Shown: positions 5,070 through 64,000, counted from the first letter of the stretch. The stretch is DNA of 64,000 nucleotides from Promethearchaeati archaeon (GCA_013166775.1 JABLTJ010000002.1:78264-142263); one strand, 5' to 3'. Numbers and translations are program-made. Notes: generated by a model from the letters alone, not told the origin.

Positions 5070-5127
5070 CTGTTATTCCTTAAATTGACTATTGTATAAA
5101 AAATTATGTAAAAGAGCTTTAGTATTG

Positions 5128-6974: not shown

Positions 6975-8167
6975 TTTTTACCCTCCACCATTCGACTGAC
7001 CAATTCAGCTATATCAATTACTTCAACATCCATTTCTCTTTGTTTAATTCCTTGTTGAATAGTATCTAAACAAGTTGGACACCCATTAACAACAATGTTA
7101 GCTTCTGAATATTGAATTTCAGATATTAGGTGGGAATTGACTTGTCCAACTAATTCTTCATCATTTAGTTTTAGTAAACCACCTCCTCCACAACAAAGTG
7201 ATTCTTCCCTATTAGATGGTAGTTCTTCATATCTGACATTAGGAATGTTTTTGATTACTTCCCTTGGAGCATCACTTAATCCACAATGTCTCACTAGTTC
7301 ACATGGATCTTTGAATGTTATTTTTTCTTTAATTGGATTAATTACTTTCAGTTTCTTTTCTTCGAAAAGTTCATTTGCTAATTCAGAAATATGAACTACT
7401 TCGATATCCCACTCTTCACCCAAGACTCTGGGGTAAACTATTTTGAAAGCTCTATAACATCCTGCACAAGCTGTAACTACTTTCTTAACACCAAGTTTCT
7501 TGAATTGATCTAAGTTATGTTTTGCGAAAGTCTTCCCAACGGAAAAACCACCAGCTAAGAAAATTGGAGAACCACAACACCTTTCTTCAGTTCCTAAGAT
7601 AGTGAAGTTTAATTTTGCTTTTCTAAGAATCTTAACAACGCTTTCTGCTATACTTCCCATTTTACCAGAATATGAGGCTTGACATCCCACGAAATACGCT
7701 AAAGGTGCTTTCTTTTGCGTTCGTCTAGACATATTCATACCACTTAATGCTGCCCAAGAAACTCTTTCTTCAGTAGGTAGCCCAAAAATATTAAAGAAAT
7801 CTTTTACTCTGTTATAGAGAGATAAGAGTTTGGGATTCCATCTTCCTCTTTTGAATGCTTCTTGTCTTATCTGTTCCCAAACTTTCAACAAAGGAAGATC
7901 AACAATACAGATGTCTTCACAAGCACGACATGCAGTACAAAGGAATACGCTTTCAAATAGCTGTTTAGAGACGTCGTTTCTCAACTTGTCCTTTATTTCT
8001 TCTGAATAATATAGTTTAATCTGATCCAAAATCCCTCTTGGATGATTAACCTCCCATTTAAGTTCCTTATAGGTCGGACATAATGAACAATAACCACAAT
8101 ATACACATTTTTGTGCTACATCCAATACATCTACTTGCCAACCTTGTAGAGAACTCATCTGCAACAA
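6971..8167 (-). CDS. Fe-S oxidoreductase with 2x4Fe-4S and CCG domains (GlcF/HdrD/LutA-like)
   Basis: Ferredoxin-type motifs CVYCGYCSLCP and CTACRACEDIC, and CCG cysteine motifs CCGSP and CCGGGG. Confidence 0.75.
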   Translation of the reverse strand: MLQMSSLQGWQVDVLDVAQKCVYCGYCSLCPTYKELKWEVNHPRGILDQIKLYYSEEIKDKLRNDVSKQLFESVFLCTACRACEDICIVDLPLLKVWEQIRQEAFKRGRWNPKLLSLYNRVKDFFNIFGLPTEERVSWAALSGMNMSRRTQKKAPLAYFVGCQASYSGKMGSIAESVVKILRKAKLNFTILGTEERCCGSPIFLAGGFSVGKTFAKHNLDQFKKLGVKKVVTACAGCYRAFKIVYPRVLGEEWDIEVVHISELANELFEEKKLKVINPIKEKITFKDPCELVRHCGLSDAPREVIKNIPNVRYEELPSNREESLCCGGGGLLKLNDEELVGQVNSHLISEIQYSEANIVVNGCPTCLDTIQQGIKQREMDVEVIDIAELVSRMVEGKK

Positions 8168-34100: not shown

Positions 34101-35870
34101 TTGATAGTATGAATTATTTGTCAATTCTTGTAGCTCGACAAGAAATACATTACTATCTGCATAAAAGTAGAAAACCGTACTATTAACTTGGTTTAAAATA
34201 TCAGAAGCATATACATACAAATAATGATTACCATCAGTGATTGGTATATTGGTTCTGTATATATTTCCAAATTCAGGATTCCATGTAGAATTTGAATGAG
34301 AATCCCAGTGATATTTAACATTTTTAATACCTGAAGAATCAGAAATCTCAACATCAATTGTTTTTAATGGAGCATAAGTTGATCCATTAACAACGTTATC
34401 AAGTAGAATAGATGGTATATCGGAATCAAATGTAAAATAATAGATGTAAATATCACTAGAATAGAAATCCGTAGTTCTTATCGTCAAGTTGTGTTCTAAT
34501 TCAAACACTGGGGCTAGTATATCATAAGGAGATAATAGAGGGATCTGTGTTTCGCTACTATCCCACTCGTATGTAACAGTATCCACAGCATAAGCTGAAA
34601 AATTTAGATAAGTTCCAGCTTCAACCGTTGATCCATTTGAATATGGTTCATGTAGTTCTAAGTTTATAATTGAAGCATCATAACCGAATTGATAATAAGC
34701 TGTTCGTGTATTATTATACACTGGATCACTGGCAACAATTTCTAAATCATGCCAACCAGCAGTTGTTGGAAGTGTAATTAGTGTTGAATTATCAAAAACA
34801 TTCCAAATTCCACTATCCCACCTGTACTTACTTATTGAACCATCAGTGACATCAATAGTCATTTCTTGAGCATTCTGGTATACAGTGTTATTCATAGCAT
34901 TATATAAATCGATATCCGGAGTATTGTTTTCATGCATATAAAGTTGAACACCAAGAATTCCATCTACATTATATATAGTGTAACTATTGGAATGAATACC
35001 ATCATTAATGTTCCAATCCATGTTTGTTCCTGAGATCCCTGAATCAGAATATTGTCCATCTTGTATTATGTTCAAAGTACAATGACCTTGTGTTGCTCCT
35101 ACATCACTATATGCATACTCATATGTTAATTTGAATCTATCACCTGCGGGAACAGTATACGATGTTAGCGTGCTATTTGTTTCTAACCATTCCCAATACT
35201 CTGTATCGGTTGGAGTATTAATCTTCGGTAATAGATATGCAACTGAAGTTATTTCTGTAGAAATATTCGTACTAGAATGATAGTGCCAGAGAATGATTTT
35301 TAATGTTATATCTATTGAGTTAAAATATGAATCATAGGGATCGTCGTTTAAATCTCTGTGCATATTAAAGATATAATGAACTTTATCTTCTATAGTTGTG
35401 TCATAATCTAAAACTGGACTGTACATAATTGATTTTAAACCTGAAGCCCAATAATCAACTCCAAAATAATAAGCATCATTTTCAGAAGGTACTGGAGCAT
35501 AGGTTATATCTCCAACTCCAAATCTTTTAGTATTTATATCCCAAGCATCATGCCCAAGAATACTATCATAAGCTGTCCACTGATAACCTGATCCATTTGC
35601 ATCCAGTTGAGAAGTGAATGTCTTATAGCTGAAGAAAGATTGTGTTTTAAAATCTCCTTCAATTACCTCTTGACGAATTTTATTCTTTGCTCCTTCTTCA
35701 ATAGAATTATCATTTCTATTATCTATTTTTTCTAGATTAGTATCTGAGGAATAATCTAGAAAATCACTCATTTGCTGCTCTTCTGGCATTGAAAGTTGAT
35801 AAAACACTAATGAATTAATAAACACGAATATTAGCATAAATGATAATGCTCTACTAGTATACAACTCCAT
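31113..35870 (-). CDS. giant single-pass surface protein (1585 aa), tandem paralog of 26316-31091
   Basis: Same architecture as its neighbour. The cytoplasmic tail is nearly identical between the two paralogs, whereas the ectodomains are much more diverged. Confidence 0.7.
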   Translation of the reverse strand: MELYTSRALSFMLIFVFINSLVFYQLSMPEEQQMSDFLDYSSDTNLEKIDNRNDNSIEEGAKNKIRQEVIEGDFKTQSFFSYKTFTSQLDANGSGYQWTAYDSILGHDAWDINTKRFGVGDITYAPVPSENDAYYFGVDYWASGLKSIMYSPVLDYDTTIEDKVHYIFNMHRDLNDDPYDSYFNSIDITLKIILWHYHSSTNISTEITSVAYLLPKINTPTDTEYWEWLETNSTLTSYTVPAGDRFKLTYEYAYSDVGATQGHCTLNIIQDGQYSDSGISGTNMDWNINDGIHSNSYTIYNVDGILGVQLYMHENNTPDIDLYNAMNNTVYQNAQEMTIDVTDGSISKYRWDSGIWNVFDNSTLITLPTTAGWHDLEIVASDPVYNNTRTAYYQFGYDASIINLELHEPYSNGSTVEAGTYLNFSAYAVDTVTYEWDSSETQIPLLSPYDILAPVFELEHNLTIRTTDFYSSDIYIYYFTFDSDIPSILLDNVVNGSTYAPLKTIDVEISDSSGIKNVKYHWDSHSNSTWNPEFGNIYRTNIPITDGNHYLYVYASDILNQVNSTVFYFYADSNVFLVELQELTNNSYYQGGETVKVTIQKSNGTVSYIWDSGIEEEGSIFSSTLTLEGSEGIPLTAGSHNLTIITYDSSDVQYILYFILIVDLEAPVIDSDISIYNNSRFLTDQIFIFNITDNYVSGSDLTVLYSIDGKANRLLNEPYQYALIYLEDGTHYLNIKVIDIAGNIDEKFLVFVVDTTKPIIIVSIPDLVDFVTIDGNKYVPFNAEVIVTIVDDDPLVTTEYAWGDPPYIDFSYHFYLAYSDENSILHIRAIDSLGNARSIQFNLIIDGTIPSITLLNYENVTTKINYETLLEFEIEDYSDLTIDEVSYSWDKLTGFWFTSPINDLSISVLPVYQHDTTAKFSVYIEDIVGNNFTYTFLFLIDIEAPIVDLAIFNPAKDKWVDASGVYYVKSGIQIVYNASVNDDLVSFEYYWDGYSENIQILNESESWTLETPLIDGFHNLTVILTDDSVGLFPNQVTQTFYFFVDNIVLNFSKSNDFIETLYAYENSTNLIYGNNVSFVLNITDATYGLEILGLQYKIIKDMKLNLSVEIIKLDNITYEILIIATNVTKGLLTEIEIQFYKFEESKQLIRIYLDIEKKEGSLSIDSRSIQEVTYEENITIVMKLENNVGENERIIMIIIDGDTHIFNFTELPDRFYQFNISSVMFQGKGNYSLVIYVESNFFIGESIIDIEINPLETMLTIEVSEHEIIEEAQLIITGQLTLLNGTPISLAEIEITIYIKLKENGKRVYAFDTANYDDLEVFTVTTDFEGYFQKAFSMSADIDYVDIEVSYSGDDYYGIINSALEAPVFTTPPPGLPSWLLYIIIGGSLALALIISIIVYKVTRRKPFQKFLEEITDEEVEENYSIISPGAVLSIFDQKKGPVPLVMDHSLKFEKYSIRLRMGIENFLLKISDQAYSSLGFEEHDVGRRVGSIVLPGEKMIGWVHGIQLPNEAARGGFENLSLIVLADTDFGTYLLNYQEYIYDEADLLNSALKSKKELTEINEILIKIRKKSVQIMLAAQKMEN

Positions 35871-50264: not shown

Positions 50265-51083
50265 ATGGCTGAGATTATCCAAATTATGTTGTATATACAG
50301 GTTGCTACAGTTGTTGGCTGTTTAGCATACAGCGCTATTATAGACCTGATAAAAAGAGAAATTTCTGATATCCCATGGATAATAATGGCTGTTGAGGGAG
50401 TCATTACAACCATAATCATAATCATTTTTTCCAATAGAAGTAGTTTGTACACAAGACAACAAGTAGGCATATCAGTAGCAATTAACCTTGTCGTGGGAGT
50501 ACTATTGGGATACTTACTCTATTATACAGGCGTAATGGGAGGTGCAGATGCTAAAGCTCTAATGGCTTTATCAATAAACTCTTCAGTTTATCCTTTTCTA
50601 ATTGGAGTAACTCAATTGGATGTTTACAGGTTTATGCCTTCAGTTTTCAACACATTTTTTAACTGGCTGTTAACAATGGTAATTATCTATCCCTTACCGC
50701 TTCTATTTTACAACGTCTACCTAAAATCTAAGGGAGCAAAACTATTCGAAGTAACTTCTGCTAATTTTGCTAGTAAAATTCTCATGATGATTTCAGGATA
50801 TCTAATTCCAGTTGAAAAAGCTTTGAATAGAACAGATGTTGTATACTCTGAAACATTCGATGAAGAAGAAGAAAAATGGGAAATCAAGCATTTCTTGCAA
50901 GTACAGGAAATAGAAGAAGAAGAGGAATTCAAGAAAGAGATAGAAGAGAAGATAAAAGAAACCAGAAGGAAAAAAATCTGGGTAAAAGTACTACCACCAG
51001 GAATTGTATTCCTTTTGATTGGTTACATAATAAATATACTTGCAGGAAATATTCTATTCCTTATTTATCATTTCACCTTGTAG
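50265..51083 (+). CDS. A24-family archaeal prepilin/preflagellin peptidase (FlaK/PibD-like)
   Basis: Polytopic membrane protein with the two catalytic Asp contexts DLIKREISD and MGGADAKAL (the GGxD(A/V)K motif). Confidence 0.65.
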   Translation: MAEIIQIMLYIQVATVVGCLAYSAIIDLIKREISDIPWIIMAVEGVITTIIIIIFSNRSSLYTRQQVGISVAINLVVGVLLGYLLYYTGVMGGADAKALMALSINSSVYPFLIGVTQLDVYRFMPSVFNTFFNWLLTMVIIYPLPLLFYNVYLKSKGAKLFEVTSANFASKILMMISGYLIPVEKALNRTDVVYSETFDEEEEKWEIKHFLQVQEIEEEEEFKKEIEEKIKETRRKKIWVKVLPPGIVFLLIGYIINILAGNILFLIYHFTL

Positions 51084-51140
51084 AAGTATTGATTGAACTA
51101 AACAAATTTATAGGAATTGTCAACTGTTTAAACGATTAAA

Positions 51141-51827
51141 ATGGAACCAAATGAAATGGCGGAGAAAGCTATTGAGATGGTTAAGAACAAAAAAACAGAT
51201 GAAATTGTTCCCTTTATTGTGAGTAAATTTGATGATGAAAAAGAAGTATTCAAAGCTCTCATTAGTGTTCAAGTACAAATGAAGGAAATAGGAGGAGGGT
51301 ACCCTCCAGTTGGGGAGCAAATTAGAACTATTGACGAAATTATAGAATATACAGAGAAAGCTATCAGCTACGCTCTTGAGAATGGTAATACCCTAATAGC
51401 TGGAATATTGAATCATAATGTTGCATCATTCTGTTTTCCAAACATGGATGATGGAGTAGATGAGAGATTAATTGAACCTGGTTACAAAGCTGCAGTTAAT
51501 GATTATGAACTAAGAAAGAAAATAGGCGATAAAGGTCCATTGCTTTGGGCTAAGTGGTTGGTTGGTGTTGCTGAGTTCATTAAAGGAGAAACAGAGAAGG
51601 GAATCAAAACCTTAGATGAAACAGCTAATTTAGCACACGAAGATCCTGAAACAAAAAGCATTGAATCTTGGAGTAAATTAATGATAGGAAAATTCTACTT
51701 CAAATCTGATCCTAGTAAAGGAGCTTTAGCAATTGAAGTATTGGAAGAAGTCAAAGAGGAATTTACTTCTCAAGAAGATAAATGGGGATTGGATATATTA
51801 GAAGGAATTTTGAAAATTTATTTTTAA
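51141..51827 (+). CDS. hypothetical protein
   Basis: 228 aa ORF, predicted helical. Confidence 0.4.
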   Translation: MEPNEMAEKAIEMVKNKKTDEIVPFIVSKFDDEKEVFKALISVQVQMKEIGGGYPPVGEQIRTIDEIIEYTEKAISYALENGNTLIAGILNHNVASFCFPNMDDGVDERLIEPGYKAAVNDYELRKKIGDKGPLLWAKWLVGVAEFIKGETEKGIKTLDETANLAHEDPETKSIESWSKLMIGKFYFKSDPSKGALAIEVLEEVKEEFTSQEDKWGLDILEGILKIYF

Positions 51828-51858
51828 AAAAGGGGAGATAGGTCTCCCAATATGCTTC

Positions 51859-52650
51859 TTAATAGCTCATTTCATGCTTCAGTTCAAGCTCTTTCTCTAT
51901 CTTGTTTTTTATATCTCCAGTAATATAATCTAATACCTCATTTTGATCAGCTTGTAATCTATGACATCGTTTAAAGTATGTCAAAATTGCGTTTACATCC
52001 CTTTGCAGAATACGATAAGCTCTCGTTAAAGGGATCAATTTAGAACCTCCATCTATTGAGTCTTTCAGAGCGAATTTTTTTGTTTGTAGAAAATCAATCA
52101 CTACTATTTCTTCATTATGAAGAATAATATTGTGTTCACTGAAATCTCCATGAACATAGTGTAATTGAAATATATCATAAAGGAAATCGATGCATTTCTC
52201 CATTAACTCAGACGGATCATCAAAATACTCCTTTGAGAAATCCTTCAGTAGAGGCGAAGGTCCCGCATTGTCTCCAATTAATTCCATTGAAAAACTGAAA
52301 TCATGCCATTTGTAAGGTTGAGGAACTGGCAATTTTAATTCGAACAGATCTAGCGTTTTATAGAATTCCAACTTAGCAAACTGTTTGATTACTTGGTAAG
52401 GAGATATTCTAGAGGTATTGTTTATTCTTTGCCTGTGTGTTGTACGGTAAATTTTATAGCTTTTTAGAGCAATTTGTCTTTCTTCTTCATCTATTCCCCA
52501 GCAAACAAAAGCTTCTTTCCCTTGTCCTATTACCTGAAAAGCTTCCCTAATAAGATTATTTTCTATAGCTTCCGCTAAAGCTTCTTGAGGAGTCAGCTCA
52601 TATGCTGAAACTCCTGTTTCACGCCACATCCAATATTTTTCATTCATCAC
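51859..52650 (-). CDS. RIO-type atypical serine protein kinase
   Basis: YVHGDFSEHNIIL...IVVIDFLQ matches the RIO catalytic and metal-binding loops (HGDLSEYN / IDFxQ). 263 aa. Confidence 0.7.
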   Translation of the reverse strand: MMNEKYWMWRETGVSAYELTPQEALAEAIENNLIREAFQVIGQGKEAFVCWGIDEEERQIALKSYKIYRTTHRQRINNTSRISPYQVIKQFAKLEFYKTLDLFELKLPVPQPYKWHDFSFSMELIGDNAGPSPLLKDFSKEYFDDPSELMEKCIDFLYDIFQLHYVHGDFSEHNIILHNEEIVVIDFLQTKKFALKDSIDGGSKLIPLTRAYRILQRDVNAILTYFKRCHRLQADQNEVLDYITGDIKNKIEKELELKHEMSY

Positions 52651-52908
52651 TTTTTGTGCACATCCTTAGGAAGTATCAAGATAAGAGAAAATGATTACAG
52701 AGAAAATATCAATCTAAAGCAAATGTGGGTAAGAATAAAAGATTATCTCGATAATCGAGGTGTCACTGTATCTAGCAAACGAAGACCAACAATTTTCTTT
52801 GTATATTTACTTTTCGCTTTCATTTTGCTCTTGACACCTCCTTACTATACTGAATTGATATTGAAAAACTCATTTATAAGAATTTCTAAAAAAGATAATT
52901 ATACAAGC

Positions 52909-53112
52909 CTATTCTTCTTCTATGACTCGTTGCATGTAAATATCACAGTCCTTACAAACTAAGAAATCGTAAGAATCTTTGTCCTTATAGTATATTGTAT
53001 AGAACATGGTTTTATTGCATTTACCACATTTAATATCGGATTCTTCTTCTGAAACGAATAACAATTTTTTCACGTCTTCATTGGGTGTTACATATTTGGA
53101 CAACTTAATCAC
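52909..53112 (-). CDS. small zinc-ribbon protein
   Basis: CGKC...CKDC pairs. 67 aa. Confidence 0.35.
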   Translation of the reverse strand: MIKLSKYVTPNEDVKKLLFVSEEESDIKCGKCNKTMFYTIYYKDKDSYDFLVCKDCDIYMQRVIEEE

Positions 53113-53240
53113 CTAGGTTATGTGAATCTTATTCTTAAATAAAATAGCTCACGGTTATTAATATATATTTTTTTTTGAGTAAAAATATCCTTAAAGGTAA
53201 AATTAGATAAATAATGAATAAACATATATATGTGTGAATA

Positions 53241-53630
53241 ATGGCACACTACGTTATGATTGGAGATATCTATAACATAAAATTCATCCTCCCAAACATC
53301 GGAGAAGCAGAAGGAGAACTAATAAGAATAAGAGGACCTCATCTCACAGAACTTATGAATCGTGAGCTCCCAATTAATTCTAGAGGATTAAAGCGAGAAA
53401 ATCTTTTCCTTATTCCTGTTAATTTTATTTATGCGATTGAAAAACCTACTACCACTGCAAAGAGAGGAGATATCGTTTTTGAGCCAAAATCCAAAGCAAT
53501 CATCATACTGCTAGAGGACAGGAAATTTGATTCAAAAATTGCTGCAATAGGTTCAATAGTTAAGAATTTGAAAATGTTTGATAAATTATCCCAATCTACT
53601 GGTGTTCGCATAGAGAGTCTGAATGAGTAA
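53241..53630 (+). CDS. hypothetical protein
   Basis: 129 aa ORF with no recognisable motif. Confidence 0.35.
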   Translation: MAHYVMIGDIYNIKFILPNIGEAEGELIRIRGPHLTELMNRELPINSRGLKRENLFLIPVNFIYAIEKPTTTAKRGDIVFEPKSKAIIILLEDRKFDSKIAAIGSIVKNLKMFDKLSQSTGVRIESLNE

Positions 53631-53711
53631 ACTTTATGCTCTACTTGCTCATCAATATTTTTATAAATAGATTATACGTCAGTAAGTCGAAAGGTAATTT
53701 AAGGGATAATT

Positions 53712-54053
53712 ATGAGTAGCCGACAAAACATTGGTGAATCTTTTAGATCAATAAGAAAGGAAATTGGAAAATTCGAATTCAGTGATAAGGTTTTAGATTT
53801 AATTTCATTAGTGGGAGTAGTATTGTTCATAATATCTTTTATCTCTGTTTTCCTGTCTGATAAATTCAACATAGTAAATATTGTATTTATATTATATCCT
53901 CTAGCTATTGGTGGTTTAGCAGCGGCTTTTCGAATGAAAAGAAGAGATAAACCTGAAGATACACCAAAAATGTTCAGAGAATGGTTAATCATAATGAGTT
54001 CCATCACAGTAATTGGTATATTAATCATCATAATTGCACATATTCTCTTCTAA
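53712..54053 (+). CDS. small membrane protein (3 TM)
   Basis: Three hydrophobic helices. It overlaps the long ORF that starts at 53981, so the downstream gene probably starts at 54107. Confidence 0.35.
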   Translation: MSSRQNIGESFRSIRKEIGKFEFSDKVLDLISLVGVVLFIISFISVFLSDKFNIVNIVFILYPLAIGGLAAAFRMKRRDKPEDTPKMFREWLIIMSSITVIGILIIIIAHILF

Positions 54054-54106
54054 AAGTATTAGACTATCAGCAATTTTTTTATATCTTGGTAGGGTTACAT
54101 TATTTA

Positions 54107-55534
54107 ATGACTCATGAAACTTATCGAATTTATTCAAGAGTTTTAAAGTTTGGACAAAAAATAGGACTCAGAAGATTCATAGAAACTATTGTTTTTTCGT
54201 TAACTATCTTTGCTATTACTTCAGTTTATTTTGTAGTTCTCACTCGAACTTCAGAAGCAATACGTCTTTCAGCGTTTACAGCTGCAGGAACATACATTTT
54301 CTTTCCTCTAGGTTTATTCGCTGAAATTGCATTAATCTTAAGTTATATTGAAAATCGATATCAAATTGATATTTTTGGTGATAGTATAAACAAATTCTTT
54401 GGTTTCTTTAGTTTCATTTCAATAACTGTTATAATTCTATATTCCGCTATTCCTGGATTATATCTAGATAAGGAATTAAATGCTTATAATATCTCAATCA
54501 TAGTTCTTTTCTTCCTGCTTGCTGTAATTGAAACAGGGTACTTTCTCTACTCTTCCCCAAGATTAGTAAAATCAGAAACATTTGGTTTGGAATATCAATT
54601 CTCAAACATGGAAAAAAGACTTAAAGATAAAAGATTAATCGACTTACCGATTGAAAAAGCTATTAACAAAGGATTAAATGCTATAAAGAAGCGAATTAAT
54701 GAAGAAGGATTATGGGGAGAATTGAGTTCAGTTTATGAAACAGCTTGCGTTCTTGATTTATTCCATAAGTTGGGGTACAATAGAGATACAGAATGGGTGA
54801 TTTCTACCTCAGAAGGTAAAAAGACTGTTACTTTAGGGCAAACACTAGATAATATGGAAGCTATAATAAATACAGCAGAGACAATTGAAACTTCATATGA
54901 GCAATTCTATGTTCTTTATGCTCTAAGCTTATTTAATCCAACTATATTCGATGATAGAAATCAAGAGATACAAGATTTTCATGATTCAGTTTTTGAAGAA
55001 ACAGAATGGGATTTCATTAATAAATTGAACAGATTTACACCAAATCTTAGATCAAGAACAACTCCTATTCATCTAATAATGGCCTATGTTGGAGATGTAA
55101 CAGGCAATATTACTACCCTAGATAGAATGGCATCTTTATTCTCAGCTAGCATTGAAATCGTCATAAAACGTGGATATGCTCGTTTTTCAACATCACAAAC
55201 AGGGAGAACACCAATAGAAATGTTCGCAAAGCTATTGCTTGCCTTACATGATATCAGGAGAGCTCCTACAAGAAGACAACAATTCATTCAAGCTATTACA
55301 GGAACACAATTTATTGAAGGTTCTTGGGCTGGAAATGTAGGAACTACAGCTTATGTGATACAGGCTCTCATTCCTAGCGAAAATGCTGATTCTATCACAT
55401 TGAAGAAAGCTGCTATCTACTTAGCTGCTATTCAAGACAAGGAAGGATTATGGGGAGCAAACATAGAAGATACTACAATAGTTCTAAAAGCTCTAATTTC
55501 TCTTAAAAGAATGGCAGAACAAGAGACTGTTTAG
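54107..55534 (+). CDS. membrane protein with C-terminal alpha/alpha-toroid prenyltransferase / terpene-cyclase-like repeats
   Basis: About 6 N-terminal TM helices. The C-terminal half has repeated EEGLWGE... / KEGLWGAN... segments typical of prenyltransferase/squalene-oxidase repeats. Start chosen at the internal Met after the overlapping small ORF. Confidence 0.5.
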   Translation: MTHETYRIYSRVLKFGQKIGLRRFIETIVFSLTIFAITSVYFVVLTRTSEAIRLSAFTAAGTYIFFPLGLFAEIALILSYIENRYQIDIFGDSINKFFGFFSFISITVIILYSAIPGLYLDKELNAYNISIIVLFFLLAVIETGYFLYSSPRLVKSETFGLEYQFSNMEKRLKDKRLIDLPIEKAINKGLNAIKKRINEEGLWGELSSVYETACVLDLFHKLGYNRDTEWVISTSEGKKTVTLGQTLDNMEAIINTAETIETSYEQFYVLYALSLFNPTIFDDRNQEIQDFHDSVFEETEWDFINKLNRFTPNLRSRTTPIHLIMAYVGDVTGNITTLDRMASLFSASIEIVIKRGYARFSTSQTGRTPIEMFAKLLLALHDIRRAPTRRQQFIQAITGTQFIEGSWAGNVGTTAYVIQALIPSENADSITLKKAAIYLAAIQDKEGLWGANIEDTTIVLKALISLKRMAEQETV

Positions 55535-55598
55535 ATACAGTTCTTATTTTTCTTTATTATATATAGTTAAAAAGAGATATTTAATTTATAGAAAGGAG

Positions 55599-56099
55599 AT
55601 GAAAATGAGTACTGTCTATATTGCTTGTTCTATGATAAGATCTGTAGGAATCGATTTCTCTCTATTAGATATTTTAGAAGAGTGGATAATAAATCAGCAA
55701 CTATTACCTTTTACTCCAGGAAAGATGGAAGATACAAGTCCGGATGTAATTTTCAAAAGAGATATGAAAATGTTGGAAAAATCTGATTTCATTATTGCAG
55801 ACGTCAATGAACCTTCCCATGGAGTTGGGATGGAAATCATGTATGCTTATGAACATGGAATGCCAGTTATTTGTGTACTAAACAAAGAGAACAGACCATT
55901 TTCGAGGATGGTAGATGGGAGTCCTCATGTTTACTTGATTGAATATGAAAACAAAGAAAATCTGAAAACAAAATTAGAAAGAATCAAATTGAAAGATTTA
56001 TTGATAGAATTTTGTGAAACTTGCCAGAATAGAACAATACACTACGAGAAAGTATGTAAAAGATGTAAAAATAAAGGTAACAGCCCCAAGGCGATTTGA
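55599..56099 (+). CDS. nucleoside 2-deoxyribosyltransferase-like protein with C-terminal zinc ribbon
   Basis: HGVGMEIMYAYEHGMPVICV resembles the NDT family active-site region. CETC...CKRC at the C-terminus. The 3' end overlaps a tRNA gene on the other strand. Confidence 0.45.
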   Translation: MKMSTVYIACSMIRSVGIDFSLLDILEEWIINQQLLPFTPGKMEDTSPDVIFKRDMKMLEKSDFIIADVNEPSHGVGMEIMYAYEHGMPVICVLNKENRPFSRMVDGSPHVYLIEYENKENLKTKLERIKLKDLLIEFCETCQNRTIHYEKVCKRCKNKGNSPKAI

Positions 56100-56152
56100 A
56101 CGCCTGCCTCAGGATCCAGAGTCCCGTATCCTTCCAACTAGACTATGGGGCT
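56081..56152 (-). tRNA. tRNA-Gln (anticodon CUG), intronless
   Basis: Folds as a cloverleaf by hand. Acceptor AGCCCCA/TGGGGCT, U8, D-loop with GG, anticodon loop CUCUGGA, T-loop TTCAAAT. Confidence 0.7.
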
Positions 56153-56286
56153 TTGTTTCTTATGGTGTCTGGTTTTTACCTAAATAAAATTTTTTGGTAA
56201 TAACAATTAATTGAGTCCTTAATTATAGAGATAAATTCTTAAATACTTTGTATTTTTTTACTAAATGCTTATCAAAGTGGTGAAAT

Positions 56287-56865
56287 ATGCAAGAAAAGCC
56301 ACTAAAAAACAGATTTATAGCAATTTTCAAGCTTCTAAGTAAAGAGTATATTCTTCTCTCGATTTGTACTTTCTTAGTTCTTTTGGCTCTTATAATAGAT
56401 CTTTTTACTTCAGTAAATTATTTCTTAACAATAGTACTTATACTCACATGTTTCTTAGTTGGAATTTTATTAAATAAAAAAATTTCAGTAATATTTGCAA
56501 GTGTAATGATTGTTATTTATTGTTCAGCTATATTTTCGTTGTTGATGGTAAATCAGGATTTATTTGATAATTCTGATCTTGCTTCGATTATGTACAGAAT
56601 AGGCGGAGGAGCTTGGGGACTTTGGGGATTGTTATTATTCCCACCTTTTATAATAATAGGTGGTTCAACTTTTCTAGGAGCATGTATTCAAGTGATTATA
56701 TTTTATTCTACAACTCCAAAAGAAGAAATAGAAGAAAAACATGTAAAAAAAATATGTCCTAATTGCCTTTCAGTTAATTCAAAAGAATCAACGAATTGTA
56801 AAAAATGTGGAAAAAAATTTCAATCAGTACAGACTAATAGTAAAAATGATTCTTTCAATTTATAG
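56287..56865 (+). CDS. membrane protein with C-terminal zinc ribbon
   Basis: 4 TM helices, then CPNC...CKKCG. Confidence 0.4.
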   Translation: MQEKPLKNRFIAIFKLLSKEYILLSICTFLVLLALIIDLFTSVNYFLTIVLILTCFLVGILLNKKISVIFASVMIVIYCSAIFSLLMVNQDLFDNSDLASIMYRIGGGAWGLWGLLLFPPFIIIGGSTFLGACIQVIIFYSTTPKEEIEEKHVKKICPNCLSVNSKESTNCKKCGKKFQSVQTNSKNDSFNL

Positions 56866-56879
56866 AAAAGAAAGGTAGT

Positions 56880-56981
56880 TGCCCCAAGGTGATTAATTCA
56901 AGGCTTCCCTCGAGAACACCTTTTTGAACACCTGTCTCTGGGATCAAATCCCAGCGTGATTGACCGCTACACTATGGGGCT
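56880..56981 (-). tRNA. tRNA-Gln (anticodon UUG) with a roughly 30-nt intron in the T-loop
   Basis: Same acceptor and D arm as the CUG isoacceptor, anticodon loop AUUUGAU. The T-stem halves AGGTG and CACCT are separated by 37 nt (TTCAAAAAGGTGTTCTCGAGGGAAGCCTTGAATTAAT) instead of the usual 7. Confidence 0.6.
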
Positions 56982-57072
56982 GTCGATTATTTCTTTCTAT
57001 TTCTCTTGATTTCCCTATTTGGTTTTAAATCCTTCTTTTTTTACCTAGTGTTAATATAACTTGGTTTCTAGA

Positions 57073-57882
57073 TTAGGACTGAACAAAGTTCCTTACTGTA
57101 TTAATAAAACTATCAAACTGTTCTCTTTGAATATTATATCCTGTCTGCTCATAGAGAACCCATTCACCTTCCTGAAAACTATCTTTTAATGATTGAAAAT
57201 ACTTCTTAGGTATAACGCCATTCTCAGCTACCATTAATAAAATTGGGACTTTTATATAAGGTAAAACTTCTCTGTATAATACACGATCTGTTCTTAATTG
57301 TCTCAGAGAAGGTTTTTGTTTTAATTGTGCAAATTGGTATTGAGCTCTAGCCCAACTTTTCTGATCTATAATGTTCCAATCAGTATTTTGCTTCGTACTC
57401 CTCTCTATAATTTCTTCCTCAGTTTTATTTCTCATTGAACTTAACCTCATACTAAAAGCGAAATAAATCATAATCTCTCTAAAGGTTAGAGATGGTTTGA
57501 AGTTAAAAGCGGGTTCTACTAAAACGATGCCTTTAACAAGTGGTGAATATTCTTTTGCCAATAAACTAGTGATTCTTGCGCCCATCGAATGACCTAAAAT
57601 CCAAGTTTTATCTAATTCAAGAGTTTTGATAAGTTCTGCAATTTCTTGCATCATTTCATAGCTATCTATTCCTTTTGAAGAAATAGAAGACAATCCATGA
57701 TTCCGAAAATCGGGCATGATTACATCAAATTCTTTCTCAAACACTTGAGCTGCTCTGGTCCAACATAGACCATTGTCTGCATAGCCATGAAGTAGAATTA
57801 AAGGTGGTTTATCCCCTCCTGTTCTAGTATAATGTAAATTCAAGCTATTGACATTAATGTAATCTGAAGTCCAGTTGTTCAT
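57073..57882 (-). CDS. alpha/beta-fold hydrolase
   Basis: Nucleophile elbow GHSMGA, preceded by LILLHGYADNG. Confidence 0.75.
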   Translation of the reverse strand: MNNWTSDYINVNSLNLHYTRTGGDKPPLILLHGYADNGLCWTRAAQVFEKEFDVIMPDFRNHGLSSISSKGIDSYEMMQEIAELIKTLELDKTWILGHSMGARITSLLAKEYSPLVKGIVLVEPAFNFKPSLTFREIMIYFAFSMRLSSMRNKTEEEIIERSTKQNTDWNIIDQKSWARAQYQFAQLKQKPSLRQLRTDRVLYREVLPYIKVPILLMVAENGVIPKKYFQSLKDSFQEGEWVLYEQTGYNIQREQFDSFINTVRNFVQS

Positions 57883-58004
57883 TTTAAATCCATTAGCTGT
57901 TTTTCGTAAATAAGGTATCTGAATTAAAAATGTATGTTTTCATTTGAGTAAATCTTTAATCACATAAGGTTATTCAAGTATTTATAGAATTTTTAAGAAA
58001 AAGT

Positions 58005-58111
58005 GGCAGTCCTAGGGAGATATTTTCAGGCTTTCCTCGCAAGAAACACCTTTTGAACTCCCGGTGCCAGATTCAAAGTCTGGAGTGTTTCCAGGCTACA
58101 CTATAGGACTG
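58005..58111 (-). tRNA. second tRNA-Gln(UUG)-like gene with a homologous T-loop intron and genomically encoded CCA
   Basis: Acceptor AGTCCTA/TAGGACT, D-stem GTGT/ACAC, anticodon loop CUUUGAA. The T-stem halves GGGAG and CTCCC are separated by 37 nt (TTCAAAAGGTGTTTCTTGCGAGGAAAGCCTGAAAATAT). The 3' end reads GCCA. Confidence 0.55.
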
Positions 58112-58197
58112 TAATGTAAGTCATTCTCTTCTAATACGATTTTAAATTTTTCTCTTTAAACTAAAAAAAATTATGGTAAAAGAAGTAATTACTCTTT

Positions 58198-60129
58198 TCA
58201 ATTACTCTTTTTTGCCCATGTATCTCTTAGTGTTATTATTCTGTTAAAGACTAAGTTTTCTTTTGTGGAATCAACTATATCAATTACAAAGTAGCCATTT
58301 CTTTCGAATTGAAATCTTGATCCTTGTTCCTTATCCTTTAGGAATGGTTCCACATAGGAGTTCAGAATAGTTATAGCATTTGGATTAAGATAATCAGTAA
58401 ACTCTTTACCTTCCTCAGTTTCCATTGGATTCTCTTTTGTATACATCCTATCATATAATCTTACTTCGGCTTCTAAGGCACTATCTGCTGATAACCAATG
58501 AATAGTTCCTTGCACCTTTCTTCCATCTGGGGATTCTCCTCCTTTACTTTCGGGATCATAGGTGCAATGGATTTCAATTATATCTCCTGTTTCTCTATCT
58601 TTAACTACATTTTCACACTTTACGAAATAAGCATATTTCAGTCTGATTTCTTTTCCTGGAGAAAGACGATAATAATCTTCGGGAGGATTTTCCATGAAAT
58701 CTTCCTTTTCAATATAGAGGTTTTTTGTAAAGTTAACTTTTCTAGTCCCCATTTCCTTATCAGAAGGGTGATTTGGTACAGTAAATTCCTCTATTTTATC
58801 ATTAGGGAAATTTGTGATAACAAGTTTGATTGGATTAATTACACTCATTACTCGTGGGCATCTTTTATCCAAATCATCTCGAATGTAGTGCTCAAAGATT
58901 GACATATCTATTAGTTTATCTCGCTTAGTGAAATTTATTGCTAATGAGAAATTACGTATAGCTTCAGGAGTTATCCCTCGTCGTCTCATACCTGCGATTG
59001 TTAACATCAATGGATCATCCCATCCTTTAACATAACCCTCTTCAACGAGCATACGTAAACGTCTTTTACTTCCCACCATATATGTGAGATTCATTTTCGC
59101 AAACTCTATTTGTTGAGGATGGAAAATAGGATTACCATCTTCATCGTCTAGTTGATCCAAATACCAATCATAGAGAAGTCTATGGACTTCAAATTCCAAA
59201 GTACATATTGAATGAGTTATTCCTTCTATTGAATCTTCCAAACCATGAGCCCAATCATACATTGGATAAATGCACCACTTATCACCAGTATTAGGATGAT
59301 GAGCATGAAGTATTCTATACACTATAGGATCTCGCATAAGCATGTTTGGATGAGCCATATCTATTTTTGCGCGGAGAACTTTTTCTCCATCTTTGAATTC
59401 ACCATTTTTCATCCGCTCAAACAAGTCAAGATTCTCTTCAATTGATCTATTTCTGTAAGGGCTTTCTTGTCCAGGTTCTGTTATTGTTCCTCTCATTTCT
59501 CTGATTTCTTCTACACTAGAATCATCTACATACGCTAAACCTTTCTTAATCAGCTGAATAGCATAGTCATATAACTGATCGAAGTAATTGGATGCAAAAA
59601 GCAATCTGTCTTCAAAATCAACTCCTAACCAACGTACATCTGCAGTTATAGATTCAATGAACTCCTCTTCTTCAGTAATAGGGTTTGTGTCATCGAATCT
59701 CAGATTGAATTTCCCACCATATTCCACTGCGAAGTGATAGTTCCTATTTATGGAATAAGCATGACCAATATGTAACCAACCATTTGGTTCAGGAGGAAAA
59801 CGTGTATGAACTCGACCACCATATTTGCCTGTTTTCATATCCTCATTGATTATTGTTCGTATGAAATCGACATCCTCTTCAGTATCTTCTTCTACTTCCT
59901 CCAATAATTCTGGATACTGCTGTTGTGCTAGTTGTTGTATCTCAGATGAGTTTAATGAATTGATGTAACTAACTTTCTTAGCTACAATTGCTTTAATGTT
60001 CTCTATATCCTTTCGCAGTTCAGGATTGGATTTAGCAATTAATCCTATAACTGCTCCAACAACTGCTTCACCATGCTCTAAAGCATTTAGAACGGTGAAC
60101 TTTTCGCACAACTTTTCTAGTGATGTCAT
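58198..60129 (-). CDS. glutaminyl-tRNA synthetase-type class I aaRS (GlnRS / eukaryote-type GlxRS) with an N-terminal appended helical domain
   Basis: HIGH region [26 protein letters not shown], and the MSK region [11 protein letters not shown]...[17 protein letters not shown] closely match GlnRS. It has a roughly 90 aa N-terminal extension. Confidence 0.75.
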   Translation of the reverse strand: [643 protein letters not shown]

Positions 60130-60203
60130 ACATAGATTCTGAAGAAAGGGAAATAATAAATTTTTAGTCTAATGTGTTTTTGAAAAAAGAAAAAAAAGGA
60201 TGA

Positions 60204-61364
60204 TTATTTCTTCTTTAAGGAAATAATAACCAAGCTAATAAGAGATAGAAGTAAAACACCTAAAACTATTGAAGAAAATTCAGGAATAATTACTATGGAA
60301 TTGAGAGGGTAAGGATCATTGTTATTAGCAGTTCCATCAATATTATAGACTCCAGGACCTACATAGTCATCCCAATAGTTACCTTCATTTGTAGCAACAT
60401 CGTACCATGTGGCATTTTGTGTGGTCAATACTGCATCATCCTCTGCTTGTACACCTCCACCATTATTTCCTATAAAGTTATTATGATGAAGAGTACAAAA
60501 ATCTACACCGGCTTCTAGATACACTCCATAAGAAGTAGTGTCTTTAATCAGGTTGAACACATAAAGTCCATTATGAGTAGATAGAATTTGGAAACCGTAG
60601 GCACCATTTTTTAGTACTGTATTATTTTCTGCAACTAGATCATTCCCATAATAATGTCCAAATCCTGCATAACTGTTGTCAGTACAATTATTGTAACGAA
60701 ATGTATTAGAGTGGCTAAAATCATTTCTAATTCCCCAGGCATTTTTTTCACATTTATTATTCAAAAACAAACCATCGTTTGAGTTATTATCGATGAAAAT
60801 TCCTTCATCACCATTATTCTTACAGATATTATTTTCTACCCACAATACTGGACACTTATCCAATCTAATTCCTGTGTGGAAATTATTAATGCAATCACAA
60901 TTTATTATTGTGGCTCCATTGCATCTAATAAGATAAATACCCACACCATCCCCACCAAGAGTATTAACACAAGTGCAATTATCAATTGTAACTAAACTGG
61001 GATAAGCATCAATAATCTTTATACATACTTCTGCAGCAGTTATCCAACAATCACGGATAATAAACGAAACATTAAAACCTGTACTACCACCACTTGCATC
61101 GATTAGAATTCCTATAAGACTACTAGTAGTTATGTTATAGTTTTCTATTATGTATGGATCACCAGGTATTCCGTTGCCAGGAAATGAACTGAATCCAGCA
61201 TCAGTTGTTATTACAATTGGATCATGGTCAATTAAATCATTCAATATAATAGGATCAGATATACTTTGATTCTTCGCGTCTGAAGAGTATGATGTAATGG
61301 TTAGTAACAGCAAAACCAAAACTACCCAAAATAACCATTTAAGTTTGTTAATCTTTGTTTTCAT
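60204..61364 (-). CDS. right-handed parallel beta-helix repeat surface protein, C-terminal TM anchor
   Basis: Signal peptide, repeated N/D-rich GxxxxNN turns typical of pectate-lyase/NosD-like beta-helices, and a C-terminal TM helix with KKK. Confidence 0.55.
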   Translation of the reverse strand: MKTKINKLKWLFWVVLVLLLLTITSYSSDAKNQSISDPIILNDLIDHDPIVITTDAGFSSFPGNGIPGDPYIIENYNITTSSLIGILIDASGGSTGFNVSFIIRDCWITAAEVCIKIIDAYPSLVTIDNCTCVNTLGGDGVGIYLIRCNGATIINCDCINNFHTGIRLDKCPVLWVENNICKNNGDEGIFIDNNSNDGLFLNNKCEKNAWGIRNDFSHSNTFRYNNCTDNSYAGFGHYYGNDLVAENNTVLKNGAYGFQILSTHNGLYVFNLIKDTTSYGVYLEAGVDFCTLHHNNFIGNNGGGVQAEDDAVLTTQNATWYDVATNEGNYWDDYVGPGVYNIDGTANNNDPYPLNSIVIIPEFSSIVLGVLLLSLISLVIISLKKK

Positions 61365-61466
61365 TTAATTTTCTCCATTAGGATGAATTCTAAAAGCAAT
61401 TTAGGGATTTCATATTTATAGTTTCCTTGAAAACTTACATACCGTAAATCTGCACAAAAGATTTAT

Positions 61467-61676
61467 TTGTTAGAAGAACCTACATATAAGTTGATTAAAA
61501 TGCCAGAACTTCCAACAACAGTTTATTGCTTTGCTTGTGGAGAAAAATTCACTAAAAGTGATCCTGAAGGATTTGAACCATGTCCCAGCTGTGGAAAGGG
61601 TTTAACAGATTTATCTGAAGATGCTCAATATGCAGTAAAGATGGTTATGAAATCAATGATAGAACATTTTCGATAA
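61467..61676 (+). CDS. small zinc-ribbon protein
   Basis: CFACG...CPSCG. 69 aa. Confidence 0.35.
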   Translation: MLEEPTYKLIKMPELPTTVYCFACGEKFTKSDPEGFEPCPSCGKGLTDLSEDAQYAVKMVMKSMIEHFR

Positions 61677-61721
61677 GTATTCCAATACTTAATTTTTTTC
61701 TCTATTTCAATAATATAGTTA

Positions 61722-62822
61722 TCAAAGAATTAAATCCAGAAAGTTGAATCTGTTATTCATACCTATAAACACTATTAGAGCACTGAGAACCACAAAAGTT
61801 AATACTATTTGGATTATATATAACCTACTAATTTTCTTATATTGTCTAGTAGAAAATGTACCTCCTTTTACAAAAGATTGTGAGGTCCAGAAGATCATTG
61901 CACACGAAGCATAGATTGCTATTACATTCAACACTAGGAGAATCAAAGACCCAATCGCACCTTCTATTGTAGCCTTACTAGCTAATAAAACACCCACATT
62001 AGCTGCTGGTGGGCACAAAGATGCAGCAACAGCTACACCCACAATTGCTGTACTTTCTCCGCGCATTATAAAAATTCCAGCTGCTAGTCCACTTGCTATT
62101 GCAAAGATTATATCACCATAATTTGGTACAGTTCTTATTGTAACTTGATTACTGTTTAAGATTAAATCAGGATTGGAATAATTGTAAATCAAACCAACAA
62201 TTAACCCAAAAAGAATTATGATGATTAATCCTGTTACTTCAGCAAACATAGCTTTTCTAGAATAGATATTCTTTGGAGTCATTGTACCAATAACTGTCAG
62301 AGCTATTGGATTTAAGAGTGGAGCAATAATCATACTAGCGATCACAATAATTACGTTATCATAAATTAATCCAAAAGATGCTAATGCTCCTGCTAAGATA
62401 ATTAGACCAATAAATGTAGGATTAATCATACCTAATCCTTTGATATTTGATATAATCTCATCAATACCTATTCCTCTACCTTTATGAGCAAATTCCTTAA
62501 TTTTAGATCTAATTGCAAATGAAACTGGTGTTACAGTTATACTTCCAAAAACTGTTCCTACACCAACTCCTTTTAATTCCTCTAAAAGAGTTGAAGTATG
62601 ATGATTTTCTATAACTGTTTCCAATGTAGCTGTATCTTCAAAAACTGAAAGGTTGAACGATATGTTTAATTTCTCTTCAAGTTCTCTAACAATTTCCAGC
62701 TTTTCAGATGGTATGATTATTTTTACCTCTTTCATGGTAAAACCTCTATTGTCTGATATTGATATTATTAATGATGAACCTTTAAAAGTCTTGCACAAAT
62801 AAACGGTGCGAAAAATAAACAA
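61722..62822 (-). CDS. polytopic membrane protein (DUF389-like)
   Basis: Soluble N-terminal roughly 100 aa domain, then about 8 TM helices. The likely true start is the internal Met (MKEVKIII). Confidence 0.45.
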   Translation of the reverse strand: MFIFRTVYLCKTFKGSSLIISISDNRGFTMKEVKIIIPSEKLEIVRELEEKLNISFNLSVFEDTATLETVIENHHTSTLLEELKGVGVGTVFGSITVTPVSFAIRSKIKEFAHKGRGIGIDEIISNIKGLGMINPTFIGLIILAGALASFGLIYDNVIIVIASMIIAPLLNPIALTVIGTMTPKNIYSRKAMFAEVTGLIIIILFGLIVGLIYNYSNPDLILNSNQVTIRTVPNYGDIIFAIASGLAAGIFIMRGESTAIVGVAVAASLCPPAANVGVLLASKATIEGAIGSLILLVLNVIAIYASCAMIFWTSQSFVKGGTFSTRQYKKISRLYIIQIVLTFVVLSALIVFIGMNNRFNFLDLIL

Positions 62823-63524: not shown

Positions 63525-64000
63525 TTATATACAGCGGTGCACTGCCGATGAGCCTATTTCTTTATATTCTTTCCTCGTTACCCAAAGTTTGTTAAATGTT
63601 TTTAGTGAGCCAAGGATACTTCCTCCAATCCATACAGAATATCTTCTTTCAGGAGGAGCTATTATTCTTACTTCTGCTGTTTCAGGTACTAGTTCTGTCA
63701 ATTCTCTATGCAATCTCTCCTTTAATCCAGGAAACATTGTTGTTCCTCCAGATAAAACAATATTCGAAAATAGATCTCGACGAAGATCTACATCACAGTT
63801 TTGTACCATCTGGTAGATTAGTTCATCTAAAGGAGCTTCTTCTGAACCTACTACTCCTGGATTGAATAGTAATTCAGGTGCCATGAATCTTTCCGGTCCT
63901 ATTGTAAGATTTTCTCCATCAGGTAAAACATATTGCTTCTCCATTCCAGAAACTTTCTCAGAGAGTTTGAGTTCCTTTTCCGGATCAAGTGCAACATAGC
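63525..64000 (-). CDS. actin (C-terminal portion; the gene continues beyond the window edge)
   Basis: YVLPDGENLTIGPERFMAPELLFNP...VLSGGTTMFPGLKERL...IIAPPERRYSVWIGGSILGSLKTF...HRCI aligns with actin subdomains 3/4 through to the C-terminus. Confidence 0.85.
   Translation of the reverse strand, partial: YVALDPEKELKLSEKVSGMEKQYVLPDGENLTIGPERFMAPELLFNPGVVGSEEAPLDELIYQMVQNCDVDLRRDLFSNIVLSGGTTMFPGLKERLHRELTELVPETAEVRIIAPPERRYSVWIGGSILGSLKTFNKLWVTRKEYKEIGSSAVHRCI

Follow-up and report, generated by a model that had tools for sequence, protein, structure and literature searches.

Putative protein-spliced introns at T-loop position 59/60 of two tRNA-Gln(UUG) genes in a Heimdallarchaeia-like Asgard archaeon

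The stretch of DNA analyzed here, hereafter the window, comprises 64,000 nucleotides from a Promethearchaeati archaeon (GCA_013166775.1 JABLTJ010000002.1:78264-142263) and holds a cluster of three tRNA-Gln genes (t1, t2, and t3), two of which, t2 and t3, carry related inserts in the T-loop. With a G+C content of about 32%, an actin fragment (63525-63944), and archaeal marker genes, its host is, on sequence grounds, a Heimdallarchaeia-like Asgard archaeon. The anticodon of all three genes is that of an archaeal-type tRNA-Gln (UUG or CUG), and an A1-U72 pair is present in t1 and t3 only. A preliminary description of the window had reported the cluster, the CUG gene t1 with its T-loop TTCAAAT, and the hydrolase gene between t2 and t3, and all of these were confirmed (Table 1). 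The t1 gene has G73 and no encoded CCA. The t2 gene has an A1.A72 mismatch, absent from that description, together with A73 and a degenerate CCA (CTA). The t3 gene begins 87 nt 3' of the stop codon of a glutaminyl-tRNA synthetase (GlnRS) gene and has G73; its distinct acceptor stem (AGTCCTA/TAGGACT) and encoded CCA were correctly noted before, and its earlier placement at 58005-58111 was off by one base.

Table 1. Positions and supporting evidence for the tRNA-Gln cluster, the genes discussed with it, and the orthologues of t2 and t3 at related loci (locus coordinates where a locus is named)
Feature	Position	Strand	Evidence or remark
t1, tRNA-Gln(CUG), intron-less	56081-56152	minus	ARAGORN; Rfam RF00005, 59.8 bits
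t2, pre-tRNA-Gln(UUG) with putative T-loop intron	56879-56981	minus	ARAGORN after insert deletion
t2 5' exon	56923-56981	minus	
t2 insert (putative intron), 30 nt	56893-56922	minus	AAGGTGTTCTCGAGGGAAGCCTTGAATTAA; at 59/60
t2 3' exon	56879-56892	minus	
t3, pre-tRNA-Gln(UUG) with putative T-loop intron	58004-58110	minus	ARAGORN after insert deletion
t3 5' exon	58052-58110	minus	
t3 insert (putative intron), 31 nt	58021-58051	minus	AGGTGTTTCTTGCGAGGAAAGCCTGAAAATA; at 59/60
t3 3' exon	58004-58020	minus	CCA at 58004-58006
GlnRS, bacterial-type, directly upstream of t3	58198-60129	minus	TIGR00440 glnS, 700 bits (cut-off 426); NF011291, 837 bits
EndA catalytic (alpha) subunit, crenarchaeal-type specificity loop	8253-8810	minus	Pfam tRNA_int_endo and tRNA_int_endo_N
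Alpha/beta-hydrolase gene between t3 and t2	57073-57882	minus	Pfam Abhydrolase_1, E = 6.5e-21
192-aa open reading frame between t2 and t1, membrane and zinc-ribbon-like	56287-56865	plus	Window contig only
t3 orthologue without insert (L002, L003, L082, L083, L084-86, L130/131, L134, L135)			T-loop TTCAAAT (TTCGAGT in L003); ACCA encoded
t3 orthologue with homologous 32-nt insert (L132/133, L136-138)			Same nucleotide as in t3
t3 orthologue with 29-nt intron at canonical 37/38 (L139)	6995-7099		Perfect 3-4-3 bulge-helix-bulge
t2 orthologue with insert (L084-86)	4966-5071 (L084)		A1.A72; A73 then CCA (AACCA)

In both t2 and t3 the acceptor, D, and anticodon arms are complete, the anticodon is UUG, and the T-stem has 5 bp. 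Instead of 7 nt, the T-stem encloses 37 nt in t2, as first described, and 38 nt in t3, for which 37 nt had also been given. ARAGORN called neither gene, nor did Rfam at its gathering score, and unmodified t3 gave just a partial Rfam match of 18.7 bits. We removed every block of 20-44 nt in the T-loop area and reran ARAGORN each time. A tRNA-Gln(ttg) call was restored by T-loop deletions of about 28-33 nt, in 49 of 650 variants of t2 and 64 of 775 variants of t3. The two inserts are related, as had been recognized before, with 24 matches over 33 alignment columns (73%). Because of a repeated A, positions 59/60 and 58/59 are equally compatible with the t2 insert; 59/60 is used throughout.

Using the GlnRS gene as an anchor, we collected 18 related loci, including the window's own contig. 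A tRNA-Gln(UUG) gene was located 70-90 nt 3' of GlnRS in all 18, and this gene is the t3 orthologue. The third gene of the cluster, at first taken as the odd one, is thus the conserved copy, found directly 3' of GlnRS in every relative examined. The orthologous gene occurred in three states: without an intron, with the T-loop insert, or with a canonical intron. The insert-less orthologues scored 57-62 bits against the Rfam tRNA model (8 loci scanned). The insert-bearing orthologues of L132/133 and L136-138 had exons identical to those of insert-less L130, and the alleles differed by exactly the block whose removal yields a 7-nt T-loop. The orthologue in L139, likewise missed by ARAGORN and, at gathering score, by Rfam, demonstrates that the t3 gene does acquire introns of the type removed by the splicing endonuclease EndA, since its 37/38 intron lies in a motif of the bulge-helix-bulge (BHB) type. 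An orthologue of t2 with the same insert and the same A1.A72 was found in L084-86; the window copy differs from that of L084 at two insert positions and one exon position. The t1 orthologue in L084 also has an encoded CCA. Since an encoded CCA is the rule in the relatives, t1 and t2 of the window are copies that lost it. As insert-less t3 orthologues have identical or near-identical exons, the earlier proposal of T-loop introns remains the best reading, and we give a probability of about 0.8 that the t2 and t3 inserts are archaeal tRNA introns that occupy a non-canonical T-loop position, 59/60, and are spliced by protein.

All five distinct insert variants shared one layout, consisting of the 5' strand of the T-stem, UUCA, AAA, (A)GGU, a variable hairpin, GCC(U), UGAA, 5 nt ending in AU, and the 3' strand of the T-stem. 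In each variant U54-A57 (UUCA) can pair with UGAA into a central helix (H) of 4 bp, and a 3-nt 5' bulge consists of A58, A59, and the first intron A. The helix on the intron side (h') has 3-4 bp across the variants and abuts UGAA directly on the opposite strand; it has 4 bp in t2 and 3 bp in t3, for which the BHB reading uses just GG:CC plus one U.G pair, and in t2 of L084 nine consecutive h' pairs merge into the inner hairpin. The pairings AAGG/CCTT and TTCAA/TTGAA, previously proposed for both genes, were found in t2, and those of t3 are shorter (AGG/CCT and TTCA/TGAA). AAA, GG/CC, and UGAA are invariant between two diverged intron types, whose hairpin loop and 3' tail vary. The BHB geometry was calibrated on the 37/38 intron of L139, a canonical 3-4-3 motif whose 5' bulge contains the last two bases of the exon and the first of the intron, and whose 3-nt 3' bulge contains the last two of the intron and the first of the next exon. 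Applied to the T-loop inserts, the calibrated geometry puts the 5' cut after A59. Registers giving a 3-nt 3' bulge were also examined, with H as GUUC:GAAU, with the intron at 57/58 or 58/59, or with AGUU:AAUU in L132, and were ruled out in that they break the T-stem, give an odd T-loop (e.g. UUCAUAU), or differ between t2 and t3. The BHB substrate first suggested therefore stands in its helices and its 3-nt 5' bulge, but not as a canonical 3-4-3 motif, for its 3' bulge has 5 nt. As read from these pairings, the motif is a relaxed BHB, HBh'-like rather than strict hBHBh' (3-4-3). Unlike in the usual HBh' definition, the exon helix is still formed, offset by 2 extra nt (PMC6379350, PMC3239211).

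Other classes of insertion were considered as well. Group I, group II, and other self-splicing introns were rejected, as the inserts are merely 30-31 nt long and lack their motifs; Rfam returned nothing but tRNA at E <= 10 in the insert region. A C/D-box guide or intron was discarded, there being no C box by eye and no Rfam match, as was a miniature inverted-repeat transposable element, with no motifs, no Rfam match, and no further copies. A pattern scan of JGI metagenomes (GTTCAAAAN{0,1}GGTKTTN{5,12}AAGCCTKR) gave 43 matches, all coding or chance and outside tRNAs.

A candidate enzyme is encoded in the window. The best PDB matches of the EndA catalytic subunit are A. pernix 3P1Z_B (E = 4e-34), S. 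tokodaii 2CV8, and P. aerophilum 2ZYZ_B, which are catalytic subunits of the heterotetrameric broad-specificity EndAs of Aeropyrum, Sulfolobus, and Pyrobaculum. The specificity loop aligned near-gaplessly (1 residue), with K41 opposite A. pernix K44, and Lys44 is needed to cut non-canonical and relaxed substrates (PMC3241643). Kaneta et al. previously assigned Asgard EndAs to the (alpha-beta)2 enzymes with a Crenarchaea-specific loop (PMC5829648). The preliminary description had asked whether the window's EndA is of a kind that cleaves relaxed BHB motifs; the catalytic subunit is of the expected type, and no beta subunit accompanies it in the window. We presume that this EndA removes the introns. 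In the precursor, U54-A57 would pair with the invariant UGAA near the intron 3' end to form the 4-bp central helix, leaving A58, A59, and the first intron A as a canonical 3-nt bulge with the 5' splice site inside it. The intron helix (A)GG(U):(G)CC(U) and a small hairpin would close the intron side, and the 3' splice site would lie in the enlarged 5-nt bulge between UGAA and the T-stem. A heterotetramer-type EndA, containing the catalytic subunit with its specificity-loop lysine, would cut at both sites, and an RNA ligase would join the exons into a normal tRNA-Gln(UUG) with the T-loop UUCAAAU. The spliced junctions would run from ...GGGAGUUCAAA to UCUCCC... in t3 and from ...AGGUGUUCAAA to UCACCU... 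in t2. The anatomy of the genes, the existence of insert-less alleles, the conserved pairing elements, and the type of enzyme are established here; cleavage itself, the exact 3' cut, and ligation are steps that we infer from the genes, and the exact 3' cut is the weakest point.

Several observations weigh against splicing. The 3' bulge, from UGAA to the T-stem, has 5 nt (UUAAU, AAUAU, or UUUAU) in all five variants, and relaxed bulges have been described as 1-4 nt or missing (PMC3239211). A fixed two-fold rule, with a cut 2 nt past the central helix, would leave a T-loop of 9 nt. H and h' are without covariation because they are invariant, and the RNAalifold consensus contains the T-stem and the intron hairpin only, with no central helix. 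Shuffled inserts reproduced the helix and bulge arrangement in about 2% of trials. No EndA beta subunit was detected by phmmer in the 64-kb window. Finally, t2 has the A1.A72 mismatch and, in the window, no CCA, and the 64 kb covered leave room for other tRNA-Gln(UUG) genes elsewhere in the genome. Some of these points could be put in proportion. The BHB-like conformer lay 1.0-1.7 kcal/mol above the minimum free energy (MFE) of the isolated arm (1.4 for t2 and 1.7 for t3), and the canonical L139 control was likewise missed by folding, its isolated-arm conformer lying 6.9 kcal/mol above the MFE. Since a canonical motif fails too, the folding failure is not evidence against the central helix. 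Given the roughly 2% of matching shuffles, a single sequence is only modest evidence, and it is the orthologue comparison that makes the case.

The enlarged bulge raises the question of what an EndA would produce from these precursors. In the BHB-EndA complex, the spacing of the two active sites over the 4-bp helix is fixed. If the enzyme kept strictly to this spacing, the product would have a 9-nt T-loop, UUCAAA+AAU in t2 and UUCAAA+UAU in t3, that is, the loop UUCAAAUAU or UUCAAAAAU. The L139 control obeys the 2-nt rule exactly, and the distance between UGAA and the T-stem is exactly 5 nt in each of the variants; such cutting would account for both. A T-loop of 7 nt is nearly universal in tRNAs, however, and insert-less alleles with identical exons have the 7-nt TTCAAAT. 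Altered bulges are also tolerated by broad-specificity EndAs (PMC3239211, PMC6379350). Because the insert-less alleles define a 7-nt product, we regard the 9-nt product as unlikely.

The insert could also be kept in the mature tRNA as a hairpin expansion after A58/A59. T-loop nucleotides 59-60 normally bulge outward, so the site is structurally permissive, and the insert folds as a self-contained hairpin between UUCAAA and GAAnnnAU; the signs of selection presented below, which indicate that function was evidently retained, would fit an expansion as well. On the other hand, retention offers no explanation of why UGAA is invariant and the AAA bulge has exactly 3 nt. No other tRNA with such a T-loop expansion is known to us, and in L139 this gene contains a bona fide BHB intron. 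The host encodes an EndA of the broad-specificity type, and insert-plus and insert-less alleles occur among near-identical relatives, as is typical of introns. Together, these points make retention of the insert highly improbable.

We further considered whether t2 and t3 are functional genes. t2, or both t2 and t3, may instead be decaying pseudogenes split by an insertion, with a working tRNA-Gln(UUG) encoded elsewhere. The acceptor end of t2, the failure of standard tools to call either gene, the presence of an anticodon-less tRNA-like gene at the t2 position of other relatives, and the limited part of the genome covered would all agree with decay. The degree of conservation argues otherwise. 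Between the window and L084, t2 exons are identical at 72 of 73 positions (99%), compared to an identity of about 85% in the GlnRS 3' end and in the 75 nt upstream of t3, and A1.A72 is conserved as well. By orthology t3 corresponds to the one conserved tRNA-Gln(UUG) that is linked to GlnRS, and relative to L084 and other relatives the window copy shows a compensatory change from C6:G67 to U6:A67, so that its stem stayed under selection. The loci of L132 and L136 have no UUG-anticodon gene other than the insert-bearing t3, and in the window both UUG-anticodon genes carry the insert. CAA is the dominant Gln codon, with 268 occurrences against 49 of CAG (317 in total) in 16 long open reading frames (ORFs). 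Decay of these genes is therefore very unlikely, and the insert appears compatible with function. This compatibility, the BHB-like layout, and the presence of EndA are the reasons why splicing is the best explanation for the inserts.

The anticodon-less tRNA-like genes were found at L083 6726-6801, L130 7180-7254, L135 5353-5427, L132 9610-9684, L136 7665-7739, and L134 11235-11311. Most occupy the t2 position; in L134 the copy is at a different place in the locus. A 7-bp stem with a UUCG, UUAG, or AUUU tetraloop stands in for the anticodon arm, and the cloverleaf and the encoded ACCA are intact. They scored 42-49 bits against the Rfam tRNA model (4 copies scanned), and 10 of 22 consensus pairs showed compensatory changes.

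The neighborhood of the cluster varied considerably among relatives. A hydrolase gene between t3 and t2 was found only in the window and in L084-L086; in other relatives the interval holds no gene, or SDR, HIT, Macro, or SBBP-type genes. In L083 nothing lies between the tRNAs, and three tRNA-type genes fall within 320 nt, and in L084 t2 and t1 are 6 nt apart. The 3' trailers of t1 and t2 (56068-56096 and 56866-56894) share ..TACCTTT.TTTT (family D4), in the window only, and bracket the 192-aa ORF. These features raised the possibility that the inserts are scars of a mobile element, an att remnant or a miniature transposon, tied to the hydrolase as cargo; gene content between the tRNAs varies, the trailers share a repeat around a window-specific ORF, and tRNA-gene integration has been documented in Heimdallarchaeum (PMC8813620). 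We found no integrase among the 10 ORFs scanned in the cluster region (50265-62822) and no att-like flanking repeats around the hydrolase gene. The insert borders show no target-site duplication and no terminal inverted repeats, and in all sequence compared the insert is confined to tRNA-Gln T-loops, where the same insert occupies the same nucleotide despite entirely different neighboring cargo. Integrases usually target and duplicate the 3' part of a tRNA gene, which does not add a 30-nt hairpin. Such an origin of the inserts is next to negligible. The cluster is an insertion-deletion hotspot, and this does not explain the T-loop inserts. The integration event proposed in the preliminary description accordingly found no direct support at the hydrolase gene. 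Elsewhere in the window, two very long ORFs, of 1591 and 1585 aa, were noted side by side (26316-31091 and 31113-35870, minus strand).

We then examined how the putative introns evolved. The t3-type introns are 81-97% identical to each other (81-84% for window t3 versus L132 and L136), and the t2-type introns of the window and L084 are 93% identical. Identity between the two types is 70-76%, versus 64-68% between t2 and t3 exons, an excess of introns over exons that is small and comes from just two paralogous host genes. L132 and L136 share 97% identity in their introns versus 80% in the adjacent GlnRS DNA. The 5' part of the intron, AGGTGTT, copies the start of the T-stem and T-loop of t2 and not of t3, a hint that the family perhaps arose in a t2-like gene. 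In a neighbor-joining tree of GlnRS, the insert-bearing t3 genes (window, L132/133, and L136-138) each have an insert-less sister. This patchy pattern requires repeated gain or loss, or allelic recombination, and, as far as the tree and alignments can tell, it would fit gain and loss by transposition-like spread or allelic recombination. Outside tRNA-Gln T-loops, no further insert copies were found in the 64-kb window or the 18 related loci, and no recombinase or mobile element was found associated with the intron family. One possible scenario, which we put forward only tentatively, is that the inserts constitute a recently or currently mobile BHB-type family that targets 59/60 by means of UGAA, acting as a guide to the near-universal UUCA. 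Such a family would have spread between the tRNA-Gln(UUG) paralogues and between populations, and would be excised with the 3' cut placed from the exon helix across the 5-nt bulge instead of by the two-fold rule. If this is true, insert-plus and insert-less alleles with identical exons would offer a ready-made system for archaeal tRNA-intron gain in the lineage closest to eukaryotes.

The GlnRS upstream of t3 shares 79% and 67% identity with those of two Candidatus Heimdallarchaeota metagenome-assembled genomes (MAGs) and 55-63% with bacterial GlnRS. Its homologues in databases carry the names Heimdallarchaeaceae or Asgard group. The enzyme has an extra N-terminal segment of about 80 aa. A 2022 review reported GlnRS as absent from all archaea (PMC9499178), and a 2024 preprint mentions it in passing in Hodarchaeales and Kariarchaeaceae. 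The archaeal identity rules for tRNA-Gln are an A1-U72 pair and an A73 discriminator (PMC9499178). Position 73 is the bacterial identity base G in t1 and t3 of the window and A in t2 and in the t3 orthologues of relatives. The L084-86 orthologue of t2 keeps A1.A72, and A1.G72 occurs in the tRNA-like gene of L083. The 1:72 pair is opened by bacterial GlnRS, and we speculate that A1.A72 could be an adaptation to the bacterial-type enzyme. The GlnRS gene has the look of a mosaic. Its 5' third is nearer to L082/L083 (79-87% versus 65-80%) and its 3' quarter nearer to L084 (84-90% versus 78%), which is also the locus whose downstream order t3-hydrolase-t2 it shares; in the sequence comparison this pattern suggests recombination between lineages. 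Upstream of t3, a conserved promoter-like AAAAATTTAAAAT was noted (L130 ~6923-6997), with equivalents in L002, L003, L132, L134, L135, L136, and L139. It is followed by a palindrome, GGTTGTCAAAGAAATTTGACAAC, ending a few bases before the tRNA 5' end and missing in the window, L083, and L084; it might bind a regulator or form a leader hairpin.

These observations bear on several wider questions. The three-state orthologue, with alleles that can differ by the intron alone, provides unusually clean material on the gain and loss of tRNA introns, and the conserved 5-nt 3' bulge offers a specific way to probe cleavage-site choice by an Asgard EndA. A bacterial-type GlnRS adjoining tRNAs with G73 and A1.A72 bears on the long-held view that archaea are GlnRS-less. 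Because both UUG genes escape ARAGORN and, at gathering score, Rfam, heimdallarchaeial MAGs may seem to be without tRNA-Gln(UUG), even though CAA is the main Gln codon; incomplete tRNA sets for Asgard genomes are noted in an earlier study (PMC5829648). Our literature search found no publication describing these specific tRNA-Gln genes.

T-loop introns at 59/60 have precedents in ARMAN-2 (PMC3239211), and non-canonical introns are abundant in Asgard archaea (PMC11291895). In ARMAN-2 (Micrarchaeota), the 59/60 intron of pre-tRNA-Cys(GCA) was cleaved in vitro (Fujishima et al. 2011, PMC3239211), and two T-loop introns, one at 59/60, were predicted in pre-tRNA-Pro(GGG) (PMC3239211). The two systems share a short 59/60 T-loop intron, a BHB-type motif that may be relaxed, and an EndA of the broad-specificity type, presumed here from the catalytic subunit. 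They differ in that the ARMAN-2 motif is hBH (BHL) or strict hBHBh', whereas here a canonical 5' bulge and h' are combined with a 5-nt 3' bulge; in that the ARMAN-2 enzyme is epsilon2, whereas the catalytic subunit here resembles crenarchaeal (alpha-beta)2; and in that Cys and Pro tRNAs are replaced by tRNA-Gln in an Asgard host. BHB introns in D-loops, T-loops, and acceptor stems are well known for Crenarchaeota (PMC3241643, PMC6379350). Like the relaxed introns (HBh', hBH/BHL) of Crenarchaeota and Thaumarchaeota, the inserts lie outside 37/38 and have a 4-bp helix with two bulges, of which one keeps its 3 nt intact and the other is disrupted, and the EndA catalytic subunit has the specificity loop and the Lys44 equivalent of their (alpha-beta)2 enzymes. 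Unlike the relaxed forms described (PMC3241643, PMC6379350), the 5-nt bulge is still closed by an exon helix.

With regard to spread, transposition of tRNA introns was proposed for Thermoproteales (Fujishima 2010, as reported in PMC4033280), and intron heterogeneity was described in a natural Caldiarchaeum population (PMC3293823). As in those cases, similar introns occur here in different tRNA genes and their presence varies among close genomes; in contrast to them, only two paralogous tRNA-Gln(UUG) genes are involved, always at one site. In Atabeyarchaeia and Freyarchaeia, 92-95% of the tRNA genes were found to contain introns, frequently at non-canonical sites (Valentin-Alvarado et al. 2024, PMC11291895). 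The present host resembles them as an Asgard archaeon with putative non-canonical introns, but one of the three genes is intron-free and most t3 orthologues are intron-less. Together, the T-loop 59/60 class of introns is already known, and what is distinctive here is the conserved 5-nt 3' bulge, the occurrence of one family in two tRNA-Gln paralogues, and a single gene found in three states.

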